A DNA stretch of 32,000 nt from Dickeya dadantii NCPPB 898 (GCF_000406145.1 NZ_CM001976.1:2383543-2415542); one strand, 5' to 3'; counted from the stretch's first letter, positions 23,740 through 26,240 are shown. The notes: generated by a model from the sequence alone, not told the origin. Program-made: numbers and translations.

Positions 23740-26240
23740 AACCATTAACGCCCAAACAGCTGTCGAGCCGTCTCAGCCGTCAGTTACAGTCCGTTTCGCA
23801 AGGCGTGGATCAGGCGATCGCCTGGGTGGATGAAACCCGGCGCAACGTTCCCCGCCTGGATATGGAAGCCGATCGGCTTATCGTCAAGCTGCGGCGCTGT
23901 CGCAACAAGGCCCGCGGCCTGTCCGATTCGTCGTTAAAAGAGATCGCCATGGGCATGTTCGGGTTGGCTCAGGGCGGCAAAACTTATCTGCTGACCTCGC
24001 TGGCCGGTAACGAAAACGGACGAATTGAAACCTCTATCGGCGGCGTTACGTTGGATTACCAGAAAAACATCAATCCGGACAACCAGCAACCGGCCTTTGT
24101 CACCCGCTTTACCCGGCAGGCTGAAGGCAAAAACACCCCGAATCCGGTACAGGTCCAGTTGCTCAACGAGGCCGATATCGCCCGAATTATGGCCTATGCC
24201 TTCGTACTGGAAGACAGTCAGAACCCGGCGCCGGAGCTTGACGAACAGCATATCGCCGAGCACCTGAAAACCCTGTCGTTGCACCGCCAGCAGGAAGCGG
24301 TGCCCGGGCTGGACGGCGATGACGTGGTCGCGTTGTGGGATTATCTGGTGCGCCACGACGCCCGGCGTCAAAAGCCGCTGGAACGCAAATTCTGGCCGCT
24401 GGCGGTGGAGCTGGCGCCGCACCTCAGCATCGACGACCGCGCCAGCCTGTTCTCGGTTCTGTGGGGCGAACAGTCGGAATACACTTCGCTCTACCGCCAT
24501 TTCGCCCACACGCTGGAGCAATTGTCCGGCACCCGCAAGGTACTGGCGCCGATCAGCCTGCTGGTGGATGAATCACTGCAACCCGACAGCGGTATTTTCA
24601 ACGCCAACCTGTTCGACCGGCTCAATAGCCCTTCCGATCTCAGCGCGCAGGTGCGCCCCATCGTCAACGGCCGCGCGGCCAGAAATGTAGAGCTGTCGCT
24701 GGCGGAACTGCTCATGCTGGCGGCTGAAGTGCAAATTCCGCTGCTGTCACCGCCAAAGGAAACGTTGTTCGAACAGGTGGACCTGCTCGATTTTCCCGGT
24801 TTCAGCCTGCAGGACGAGCCGGAATTCGAGCCGGACGAGGATAACCCGGAGCGGCTGTTGCGCCTCAAGCCACACCCGTTGTCCCGTGCATTGCTGCGCG
24901 CCAAACGCGCCTATCTGCTGGAGCGTTATACCGACGATCAGGAAATGAATCTGCTGATGGTCTGTACCGCCGCCGCCTGCAAAGCGGACGTACGCCACGT
25001 CGGCCGGGCGCTGGATTTTTGGGTGCGTCATACCCAGGGTGAAAACCCGCAAGTCCGTAGTCGCCGCAAACCCGGCCTGATCTGGGCGGTGACCCGTCAT
25101 GACCGGCGTTTCACCCACGGCTATAACAACGATGAAGCGGTACAGCGTTACGTGGGTAACCCCGGCGATGCCTGGGGCACCATGCTGGCGATGGACAAGC
25201 GCGGCATCAACAGGATGGCGGCCTGGCTGGACGCGGAGGTTCGCCGTGAAGTCAAACTGGGGCGCATCAACGAACAACTGAGCGAATTGCAGCGCGAGCT
25301 GTCCGATAACCTGCTTGGCAGTTGGTATCAGCCGGCCGGCGCCGATGACCCGGCGCACAAACAGCATATCGCCGAGTCGATGCTCAAAGCGTTGCAAACC
25401 CGAACCGGCGTGCACGGCGAACTGCTGGAACGGCTATTGCCTTCCCGCGATGAACTACGTCGGCTGTATCTGCAACAACAGGAACAGGCGCAACGCAACT
25501 TCGCGTCCTATCAGGAAGCGCAGGATACGGCGGTGCCGCTGGTCAGCTATGAACCGTTTGGCGTCGGGATGGATATCGACCTGTTCAGCGATGACGCCGA
25601 CCCGAGCGAAGAAGACGAAACTGTCGTCGCGCCGGCGCCGACCGAGGAAGAGCAAACCGAAAACCACAGCTATGAAGCGGAGTTCGCCCGTAATCTGTAC
25701 CGGTATTGGATCAACCACTTGCGCAACCTACCGGAAAACGTCGCCATCATTGAATTACTGGGGATTAACCGCCCCACCATCGAAATGCTGGTGGAGGAAC
25801 TGATTACGGCCAGCGTGCGGCTGAAGATTGACGATGAGCTGCAAACCATGCTGTTGGATTCCGGGCAACTGGGTATTAACCGGGAAAGCAAAGCGGATCG
25901 ACAGGTTTCGCGCGCGCTCAACGTGCTCGGCGATTTCGTCGCCTGGCTAGGCTTTCAGCAGGTGCCCGAGGCCGGCCGACCGGACAGCCGCGTCAACAAA
26001 GGCAACAAGATCTTTGCCAAGCCGGAAAAGCAAACGGCCAACTTCGGCACCTCCCGACGGTTGACCAAACTGTCGGCGACGCCGGTCAACAATACCGCCT
26101 ATTACATTTATGACTGGCTGATCGGCCTGAACGAGATGATTATCCAGAACGCCGGCTATGCGGCTGGGCGTGACATCAAACCCAAACAGCGCGAACGTCT
26201 GGGAACGATTCTGGGTCTGATCAAACCGACCGAAAGCTGA
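23736..26240 (+). CDS. srfC: SrfC-family protein, with P-loop NTPase (dynamin-like) motifs
   Basis: 834 aa with an ATGA overlap on the srfB stop. Walker A/G1 GLAQGGKT (aa 76-83), VDLLDFPG (aa 348-355; hhhhDxxG) and TRHD (aa 453-456; [NT][KR]xD-like). Acidic low-complexity segment at aa 610-650. Confidence 0.85.
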   Translation: MKPLTPKQLSSRLSRQLQSVSQGVDQAIAWVDETRRNVPRLDMEADRLIVKLRRCRNKARGLSDSSLKEIAMGMFGLAQGGKTYLLTSLAGNENGRIETSIGGVTLDYQKNINPDNQQPAFVTRFTRQAEGKNTPNPVQVQLLNEADIARIMAYAFVLEDSQNPAPELDEQHIAEHLKTLSLHRQQEAVPGLDGDDVVALWDYLVRHDARRQKPLERKFWPLAVELAPHLSIDDRASLFSVLWGEQSEYTSLYRHFAHTLEQLSGTRKVLAPISLLVDESLQPDSGIFNANLFDRLNSPSDLSAQVRPIVNGRAARNVELSLAELLMLAAEVQIPLLSPPKETLFEQVDLLDFPGFSLQDEPEFEPDEDNPERLLRLKPHPLSRALLRAKRAYLLERYTDDQEMNLLMVCTAAACKADVRHVGRALDFWVRHTQGENPQVRSRRKPGLIWAVTRHDRRFTHGYNNDEAVQRYVGNPGDAWGTMLAMDKRGINRMAAWLDAEVRREVKLGRINEQLSELQRELSDNLLGSWYQPAGADDPAHKQHIAESMLKALQTRTGVHGELLERLLPSRDELRRLYLQQQEQAQRNFASYQEAQDTAVPLVSYEPFGVGMDIDLFSDDADPSEEDETVVAPAPTEEEQTENHSYEAEFARNLYRYWINHLRNLPENVAIIELLGINRPTIEMLVEELITASVRLKIDDELQTMLLDSGQLGINRESKADRQVSRALNVLGDFVAWLGFQQVPEAGRPDSRVNKGNKIFAKPEKQTANFGTSRRLTKLSATPVNNTAYYIYDWLIGLNEMIIQNAGYAAGRDIKPKQRERLGTILGLIKPTES

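Follow-up and report, generated by a model that had tools for sequence, protein, structure and literature searches.

SrfC of Dickeya dadantii as a probable large GTPase from a divergent branch of the dynamin superfamily

The window analysed here, a stretch of 32,000 nucleotides from the chromosome of Dickeya dadantii NCPPB 898 (GCF_000406145.1, NZ_CM001976.1:2383543-2415542), carries srfC, the third gene of a srfA-srfB-srfC operon in which SrfA (NF040486) and SrfB (PF07520) are encoded directly upstream. SrfC is probably a cytoplasmic large GTPase of the dynamin superfamily, standing on its bacterial dynamin-like/mitofusin side and working with SrfA and SrfB. That the protein has a dynamin-superfamily fold, as its predicted structure indicates, is very likely; that it is an active GTPase in Dickeya is favoured with less assurance, while membrane remodelling or vesiculation is put forward as its output only tentatively. 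An annotation made from the sequence alone (hereafter the first-pass annotation) had suggested a large P-loop NTPase, possibly dynamin-like, and this suggestion is supported by motifs conserved in the family and by the best fold matches in the PDB.

The srfC gene family, the operon name and a toxin phenotype were already known, and the operon has had no molecular function since its naming. In the literature found, SrfC is not linked to dynamins or P-loop GTPases, nor SrfB to Hsp70; automated structure-based classifications may already hint at these links. The results support SrfC as a previously unrecognised and very divergent branch of the dynamin superfamily. As for a Rickettsia 'Srf' connection, it proved unrelated, being a coincidence of naming.

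Predicted fold of SrfC

AlphaFold2 (AF2) was run on full-length SrfC with an alignment of 105 sequences and gave a model with a mean predicted local distance difference test (pLDDT) of 83.6 and a predicted TM-score (pTM) of 0.83. The first half of the modelled core runs from a strand at residues 70-76 through the P-loop, a helix (79-90), a small hairpin and the switch-I loop to a strand at 122-126; the second half runs from a strand at 348-352, leading into DFPG, through a helix (383-400), a strand (406-410) and a helix (416-434) to a strand at 448-452, leading into TRHD. In the model, this order is that of a GTPase core. The P-loop core that the first-pass annotation called for is present, with G1, G3 and G4 each placed after the expected strand.

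The model was then compared by Foldseek with 350,542 PDB chains. All matches from rank 1 to rank 17 belong to the dynamin superfamily (E from 4.8e-5 to 1.1e-2; probability 0.51-1.00, and at least 0.85 in 14 of the 17), and they include SynDLP, Campylobacter (C. jejuni) DLP1/2, Drp1, Fzo1, OPA1, Nostoc BDLP, MxB and Mgm1. SynDLP (9em7) was matched with an E-value of 4.8e-5, and the SynDLP minimal GTPase domain (9em9) with a probability of 1.00. Nog1-type ribosome-assembly GTPases appear from rank 18 on, interleaved with mitofusins and LeoA. As a background control, the SrfC model was also searched against viral predicted structures (BFVD), among which none matched better than E=1.6. An assignment to the GBP/atlastin type was considered and rejected, none such being found among the 50 Foldseek matches listed.

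G motifs and their conservation in the family

Four motif blocks of the G domain could be positioned (Table 1). Three of them had been read in the first-pass annotation, whose coordinates are exact for GLAQGGKT, which fits GxxxxGK[ST], and for TRHD within LIWAVTRHD; VDLLDFPG is also present, but its start had been placed one codon late, at 24780, where DLLDFPG begins. As a check on chance, SrfC was shuffled 200,000 times: a Walker A pattern arose in 0.9% of the shuffles, hhhh[NT][KR]xD was seen in 1.5%, and only three shuffles (0.0015%) had the complete set of three in the correct order. A scan of the whole protein found no second Walker A or [NT][KR]xD match.

The G1-G3 spacing, given earlier as about 270 residues, is 270 residues from K82 to D352, and results from an insertion of about 200 residues. 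A large insertion domain between G1 and G3, one of the two explanations offered at the time, is therefore what the AF2 model displays, in the form of five helices and a small alpha/beta unit.

To delimit the family, 1.84 billion cluster representatives were scanned exhaustively with HMMER, E<=1e-3 being the threshold for SrfC-like sequences. At least 1,012 clusters (50% identity) were retrieved at this threshold and 294 at E<=1e-30. Conservation was read from an alignment of 140 sequences, comprising the query and 139 near-full-length proteins taken from the best 150 matches, 22-51% identical to the query. The key residues K82, D352, P354, T453 and D456 are kept in 94-99% of these representatives, contrary to the loss of motifs among homologues that would have spoken against the first-pass annotation. 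For G1, the figures are 99% for G76, 99% for K82 and 81% for S/T83 (consensus GPSQAGKS); for G3, they are 97% for D349, 99% for D352, 99% for P354 and 87% for G355, with the consensus DLLDFPG present in 93 of the 140; for G4, they are 94% for T453 and 95% for D456, the family motif being T-x-[FHM]-D and mostly TKFD. A fourth block, conserved to the same degree but absent from the first-pass annotation, has the form INP-x-GGKESTGLVTRF and includes STGLVTRF (family consensus INPxGGKESTGLVTRFT). Within it R124 is invariant and T123 occurs in 78%, position 123 being T or S in 111 of the 140 sequences and in all 101 long forms described below. From its position in the model and from the block aligned by hhalign, T123 is a candidate for the catalytic Thr of switch I.

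Dynamins carry GGQSAGKS, GSGIVTRRP, LVDLPG and TKLD. Judged on sequence, the motifs of the SrfC family read as a full G1-G4 set of dynamin flavour.

Conservation extends into the insertion, where W243 (100%), E331 (99%), L230 (97%), R235 (97%) and W220 (92%) stand out and L328 is strongly conserved; this insertion is a candidate docking surface for SrfB or SrfA. In the N-terminal helical hairpin W30 is invariant, and the hairpin, as modelled, is a candidate neck or bundle element.

Window SrfC itself is matched by the PF10139 hidden Markov model with 666.5 bits (gathering cutoff 28.1; E=8.9e-200) and is 95% identical to a D. undicola protein. NCBIfam has no model covering SrfB or SrfC. Carriers of SrfC found in the searches include Yersinia pestis, Klebsiella plasmids, Pasteurella, Serratia, Enterobacter, Pseudomonas and plant pathogens such as Dickeya. 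Concerning plasmids, 143 plasmid records hold SrfC homologues, 114 of them from Klebsiella, and a Runella (Bacteroidota) plasmid encodes a distant homologue with 21.5% identity over the N-terminal 40%.

The operon partners SrfA and SrfB

The stop codon of srfB overlaps the start codon of srfC (ATGA at 23736-23739), and srfA ends 2 nt before srfB. The three genes are collinear in 79 of 82 related loci, from Magnetospirillum to Pasteurella, the remaining three being contig ends; these loci were collected from a narrower alignment and are mostly from Enterobacterales.

SrfB, whose sole annotation is 'virulence factor SrfB', is modelled as an ASKHA ATPase of Hsp70 type. The AF2 model is of moderate confidence (pLDDT 70.8), and the top 50 PDB matches by Foldseek are almost all of the Hsp70 family (DnaK, BiP, Ssb, Hsp110), with E-values down to 4.9e-11, a probability of 1.00 and about 580 aligned columns. 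At the sequence level, phmmer with SrfB against the PDB gave nothing usable, and the SrfB profile against the PDB and Pfam gave one stray FtsA match (E=0.16). The SrfB of D. dadantii 3937 is 100% identical to that of the window.

SrfA is the probable membrane anchor of the system, on the grounds of its hydropathy and of the topology given in a preprint, according to which it is bitopic in the inner membrane, with a kinase-like pseudo-domain on the cytoplasmic side and a lipocalin-like domain in the periplasm (bioRxiv 10.64898/2026.09.18.752743). The same preprint reports an AlphaFold3 model of a SrfA-SrfB-SrfC complex with an interface predicted TM-score (ipTM) of 0.66 and favours vesicle export over classical secretion; it assigns no fold to SrfB or SrfC.

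The window operon is a minimal three-gene paralogue of a long-form operon. The latter has about 10 genes, namely srfA, srfB, srfC, two more (one coding for a vWA protein), an ABC ATPase, an FtsX-type permease, an FGE/SUMF1-like enzyme and small open reading frames (ORFs), and was seen in Pasteurella multocida (3295-18423), at a second locus of Dickeya solani (5510-20472) and on the Klebsiella plasmid pGH27_175 (4873-21728). Some Dickeya species possess both operons.

Evidence for and against a dynamin-like GTPase, and alternative explanations

This section sets the results that weigh against the assignment of SrfC to active dynamin-like GTPases beside those that speak for it and beside the alternative explanations.

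The first group concerns kinship. Neither Pfam nor the PDB yields a significant sequence match of SrfC to a dynamin-family model or to a solved dynamin. When 56 SrfC members were searched against Pfam at E<=1, Dynamin_N was not found and the matches were generic and weak P-loop ones (AAA_16 in 12 members, MMR_HSR1 in 4, GBP in 3, and also ABC_tran); against the PDB, phmmer with SrfC gave nothing usable, and a profile built from long forms only gave nothing significant, its best GTPase matches being the P-loops of GBP1/2/5 (E 0.6-2.3). The sole match below 0.1 obtained with the SrfC family profile by hmmsearch in the PDB is a Drp1 GTPase-BSE construct, where residues ~485-560 of the query fall onto the last G-domain helix and the BSE helix; its E-value of 0.047 is not significant by itself.

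Profile comparison was carried out with ten bacterial proteins annotated in RefSeq as 'dynamin family' (E. coli, Citrobacter, Klebsiella, Nostoc, Bacillus and Lactococcus records), which carry GTMKAGKS, hLhDTPG and NKFD with a G1-G3 spacing of 160 residues. The SrfC G-domain profile was aligned to them by hhalign over G1 and switch I only, with 54-72% probability and E-values of 3e-5 to 1e-4. With the G3-G4 segment alone, the block from beta4 to G4 falls in register, LIWAVTRHD over LYVLVNKFD, although weakly (E=3.5e-3, 9% probability), and G3 is collinear but not significant. In a forced alignment of the whole domain (mact 0.01), G3 and G4 stay out of register because of the 200-residue insertion, and against the single E. 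coli RdcA the P-loop alone was aligned, with 6% probability. As a yardstick, E. coli RdcA/CrfC, an accepted bacterial dynamin, matches BDLP at 1.7e-6 over the P-loop region only, and eukaryotic dynamins at E>0.1. The sequence support for dynamin kinship is thus thin but consistent, and this weak signal explains why the family was long left as a 'putative virulence factor'.

At the structural level, the full-length TM-scores are low, those normalised to the query (TMq) being 0.11-0.24 and those normalised to the target (TMt) at most 0.44; low TMq values are expected, because multi-domain proteins in differing conformations are compared. An N-terminal hairpin (residues 6-67) and C-terminal helices (488-829) are predicted on the two sides of the G domain as candidate bundle elements, and the alignments with full-length BDLP, SynDLP and DLP1/2 extend over 600-1000 columns, with TM-scores of only 0.11-0.24. 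Such scores, the Nog1-type GTPases from rank 18 and the weak AAA_16, MMR_HSR1 and ABC_tran matches would agree with motifs of another P-loop class (AAA+/STAND, ABC or an accreted small TRAFAC GTPase), the dynamin likeness then coming from the long helices of the model. This explanation is highly improbable, as DxxG and TxxD stand at the correct strand ends, a TRAFAC GTPase feature, and truncated G-domain constructs (SynDLP minimal GTPase domain, Fzo1 and mitofusin minimal constructs) were matched at a probability of 1.00; furthermore, the sole near-significant sequence match is Drp1, and the switch-I block aligns with bacterial dynamin-family proteins.

The second group concerns catalysis. The GTPase reading is qualified by residue 454 of G4, which is K or R in just 59% of the 140 representatives and otherwise P or M. 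Moreover, the Asp of G4 does not guarantee the use of GTP, EHD proteins of the same superfamily using ATP. Window SrfC departs from the consensus in switch I (QQPAF vs. ESTGL) and in G4 (TRHD vs. TKFD). The integrity of the active site varies greatly with protein size: all four motifs are intact in 98 of the 101 long forms (at least 860 residues), which have an insertion of about 80 residues after query residues 462-465, vs. 4 of 17 in the class of 760-859 residues, to which the window protein belongs, and 1 of 22 below 760 residues, i.e. 5 of 39 for the shorter forms together. In many of these shorter relatives, the Ser/Thr of the Walker motif, the Thr of switch I or the Gly of DxxG has been lost. 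Yersinia SrfC has GQSSAGKQ and DLLDFPD, a cluster with the source name Y. pestis has GQSQAGKK and ELLNFPD, Ewingella/Rahnella proteins are degenerate with GQAQSGKA and DLLTFPA, and the forms of about 720 residues in Enterobacter, Serratia, Atlantibacter, Siccibacter and Scandinavium typically have GHSQAAKA, MAVRFS, DVIDIPA and TPHD. By their motifs, the proteins of Yersinia, Ewingella/Rahnella, Enterobacter, Serratia and Atlantibacter look like pseudo-GTPases. Catalysis is therefore not universal across the SrfC family, which can apparently work without hydrolysis, whereas the fold and part of the pocket are conserved in all size classes.

These findings suit a protein of dynamin-like fold acting mainly as a nucleotide-binding or nucleotide-independent scaffold, in which hydrolysis is dispensable and the SrfB ATPase is the real motor. 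In agreement with this, the Mg-binding Ser/Thr is among the residues often replaced in shorter forms, the degenerate proteins of Yersinia, Enterobacter, Serratia and Atlantibacter are still full length and conserved, the ATPase motifs of SrfB are invariant in 36 of 36 sequences, and SrfB is better conserved than SrfC at the same loci (72-96% vs. 50-95%). A scaffold is nevertheless unlikely for the protein studied here: Dickeya, Musicola, Lonsdalea, Brenneria and most Pectobacterium, all in the class of 760-859 residues, keep every catalytic residue, as do nearly all long forms, which implies purifying selection on the active site in the Dickeya lineage. Hydrolysis has probably been retained in the long forms and in this lineage and repeatedly lost elsewhere, as far as the motifs allow one to judge.

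The third group concerns the site of action. In SrfC, neither a paddle for membrane binding nor a transmembrane segment can be made out; a hydropathy scan of the protein gave a maximum of 1.52 over 19 residues and no transmembrane-like segment. In published work, SrfABC is treated as an injectable toxin: the injected Xenorhabdus proteins are cytotoxic and insecticidal, and the full effect requires all three of them (PMC6950479). SrfC could then be a subunit of a secreted tripartite toxin, its GTPase domain manipulating membranes or organelles inside insect or animal cells, and the annotation of the family as 'virulence factor/effector', together with the occurrence of the operon in many pathogens and on Klebsiella plasmids, points in the same direction. 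Such a role is distinctly unlikely, because neither a hydrophobic segment nor a signal-like N-terminus or secretion signal was found in SrfB or SrfC (hydropathy and N-terminal inspection), SrfA is membrane-anchored, and members of the family are also known from bacteria with a free-living habit, such as Magnetospirillum, Halomonas, Azomonas and Runella. In addition, the Salmonella Srf proteins are said not to be type III secretion system substrates (bioRxiv 10.64898/2026.09.18.752743), and the Salmonella srfC mutant swarms poorly and swims normally, which is a cell-autonomous phenotype, the operon being reportedly under FlhDC control (PMC4219756).

A mobile conflict or defence system, with SrfC resembling phage-resistance dynamins, is a further alternative, above all for the 10-gene long-form operon with its vWA, ABC/FtsX and FGE-like genes. 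A link with phage resistance has been made for dynamins of bacteria, DynA among them. Long-form operons lie on Klebsiella IncFIB/IncHI1B plasmids between insertion sequence (IS) elements, with glycine-zipper and 'tellurite resistance domain' genes ahead of them, and Dickeya species may carry a second, differently sized srfABC copy. This alternative is nonetheless very unlikely, since PADLOC gave no match for SrfA, SrfB or SrfC at E<=0.1, and the three-gene operon of the window is chromosomal, syntenic across Pectobacteriaceae and free of flanking mobile genes.

Proposed mechanism and significance

For SrfC as a dynamin-like GTPase, we infer the following sequence of events. The protein would be produced through translational coupling with SrfB, downstream of SrfA. 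SrfA would fix SrfB and SrfC to the inner membrane on its cytoplasmic side, in a complex such as that of the AlphaFold3 model, and SrfC would bind a guanine nucleotide through K82/T83, T123, D352/G355 and D456. Its G domains would then dimerise and hydrolysis would shift the helical bundles, as in other dynamin-superfamily proteins, the possible outputs being assembly, tethering, remodelling or vesicle formation at the SrfA-containing membrane. SrfB would contribute a second, ATP-driven step. An output of the tethering, remodelling or vesicle-forming kind would be compatible with the swarming phenotype as well as with a vesicle-borne toxicity.

A broader proposal, which we regard as rather doubtful, is that toxicity is not the primary role of SrfABC, which would instead form a widespread and hitherto unrecognised inner-membrane machine. 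In it, the bitopic adaptor SrfA would recruit dynamin-like SrfC and Hsp70-like SrfB for vesicle formation or envelope remodelling; the long form would be the ancestral engine, still active, and the shorter forms of enterobacteria would be degenerating step by step to pseudo-GTPases. If true, prokaryotes would here pair the two nucleotide-driven activities on which eukaryotes rely to pinch off and uncoat vesicles, and both the swarming defect and the vesicle-borne 'toxicity' could be explained.

While srfABC is annotated merely as 'virulence factor' or 'toxin', the GTPase and Hsp70-like assignments make the operon directly testable. SrfC would add a large branch, invisible at the sequence level and with an unusual partner, to the bacterial dynamins, and the natural series of active-looking and degenerate sites offers a way to ask what hydrolysis serves.

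Features of the locus and neighbouring genes

Table 1. Coordinates of srfC, its partner genes and their features in the 32,000-nucleotide window
Feature	Residues	Position (nt)	Strand	Basis or remark
srfC coding sequence	834 plus stop	23736..26240	+	ORF list; PF10139 (Virul_Fac) member
SrfC N-terminal helical hairpin, ahead of G domain	6-67	23751..23936	+	AF2 helices 6-34 and 39-67, pLDDT 88-97
SrfC enlarged GTPase (G) domain	~68-501	23937..25238	+	AF2 secondary-structure order; Foldseek dynamin-superfamily matches
G1 / P-loop GLAQGGKT	76-83	23961..23984	+	Follows strand 70-76 and leads into helix 79-90; Walker lysine at K82
Switch I / G2 block NPDNQQPAFVTRFT	113-126	24072..24113	+	Conservation; hhalign with bacterial dynamin-family proteins
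Insertion of ~200 residues within G domain	143-347	24162..24776	+	AF2; conservation
G3 / start of switch II, VDLLDFPG	348-355	24777..24800	+	Directly after strand 348-352
Acidic switch-II loop	356-382	24801..24881	+	pLDDT 58-69; composition; variable and often gapped in family
G4 TRHD	453-456	25092..25103	+	Directly after strand 448-452; LIWAVTRHD is 448-456
Low-confidence post-G4 loop	464-479	25125..25172	+	pLDDT <50, disordered; site of long-form insertion
SrfC C-terminal, mostly helical region	488-834	25197..26237	+	AF2; first ~75 residues give the Drp1 hmmsearch match (E=0.047)
Disordered acidic linker	589-640	25500..25655	+	15 D/E, 0 K/R; pLDDT 35-46
srfB	996	20749..23739	+	PF07520; modelled as Hsp70-like (ASKHA) ATPase
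SrfB phosphate-1 motif DLILDVGNSHTAG	250-262	21496..21534	+	D250, D254, G256, N257 and S258 invariant in 36 sequences
SrfB phosphate-2 motif IDIGGGTTDL	569-578	22453..22482	+	Invariant (36 sequences aligned, Yersinia included)
SrfB adenosine-type motif LLLTGRPSRFPG	768-779	23050..23085	+	Invariant
srfA	438	19430..20746	+	NF040486, E=2e-170; lone hydrophobic segment 216-236 (nt 20075-20137) between Pro-rich linkers

The C-terminal part of SrfC, about 380 residues long, had been described in the first-pass annotation as helical and acidic. Its helical nature is upheld by the prediction, but residues 455-834 are overall just mildly acidic, with 58 D/E vs. 44 K/R. Between the C-terminal helices, residues 740-790 (25953-26105) form a basic segment, mainly coil, with 9 K/R vs. 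3 D/E and with F760 and L779 conserved; by analogy, it might be a membrane- or partner-binding loop comparable to the dynamin paddle.

Downstream of srfC, a GMC-family FAD oxidoreductase is encoded at 27080-29101 (+), an arrangement found only in Dickeya (2 of the 82 loci), followed at 29217-30773 (+) by a protein in which a ferritin-like and a SnoaL-like part are fused and which weakly resembles the C-terminal region of VioB. On the minus strand, the window carries four serralysin-family metalloprotease paralogues (6232-7692, 8099-9538, 9689-11134 and 16365-17843) and, among them, a type I secretion trio composed of an outer-membrane protein (11346-12734), an HlyD-like protein (12747-14096) and an ABC exporter (14107-15834). 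The region 6232-17843 (-) looks like the Dickeya protease secretion cluster.

Comparison with known dynamin-type systems

The bacterial dynamin-like proteins (DLPs) taken for comparison were Nostoc BDLP (2J68/2J69), Campylobacter DLP1/DLP2 (5OWV), Synechocystis SynDLP (9EM7), E. coli RdcA/CrfC/YjdA and LeoA (4AUR) of enterotoxigenic E. coli. They are the best fold matches of SrfC and share with it a large G domain, GxxxxGKS, a switch-I Thr, hhDxPG and [NT]KxD, as well as a long G1-G3 spacing (160 residues in RdcA, 270 in SrfC), helices on both sides of the G domain and partner genes in the operon. LeoABC, too, goes under the name of virulence factor, and a link between it and the vesicle-associated release of toxin has been made. 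SrfC differs from these proteins in that its similarity lies below curated sequence thresholds, in its extra insertion of about 200 residues between switch I and G3, in its G3 (D-F-P-G instead of D-T-P-G) and in its G4, where the first residue is T and the second varies. Neither a paddle nor a transmembrane element was recognised in SrfC. Furthermore, the partners of SrfC are in every case an Hsp70-like ATPase and a bitopic membrane protein, and not a second dynamin or RdcB.

Concerning plasmid-borne dynamins, the triad 'dynamin family protein - RdcB/YjcZ-like protein - patatin-like phospholipase' is common to enterobacterial (E. coli, Klebsiella) and cyanobacterial plasmids (two from Nostoc). 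Gram-positive plasmids (Bacillus 1577-5869, Lactococcus 547-5801) carry a cassette in which a gene for a WYL-domain protein stands next to two dynamin genes in a row, which recalls bacterial dynamin pairs controlled by a WYL regulator.

As for SrfB, it has in common with Hsp70/DnaK the phosphate-1, phosphate-2 and adenosine motifs and, in its model, an actin/Hsp70-like fold. It differs from them in its length of 996 residues, in an N-terminal beta-rich region of about 240 residues, a poorly modelled insert (293-416) and a C-terminal beta domain, and in having no Hsp70 Pfam match.

The highest TMt values were obtained with mitofusin/Fzo1 structures, namely 0.41-0.44 for Fzo1 (9kfd/9kfe/9kff) and up to 0.40 for MFN1 (5yew), with probabilities up to 1.00. 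In these proteins the G domain lies against a bundle of N- and C-terminal helices, an arrangement for which SrfC is, on its model, a candidate. Unlike SrfC, mitofusins possess their own transmembrane anchor and heptad repeats; SrfC presumably borrows the anchor of SrfA.

Finally, the PH domain, the B-insert and a recognisable GED of classical dynamin/Drp1 are not found in SrfC. The G domain of SrfC (residues ~68-501) is enlarged relative to Ras-like GTPases, in keeping with the ~300 residues or more typical of the superfamily. The correspondence with classical dynamin lies in the motifs themselves, where QSAGKS is paired with xSQAGKS, GIVTRR with GLVTRF, LVDLPG with DLLDFPG and TKLD with TKFD.

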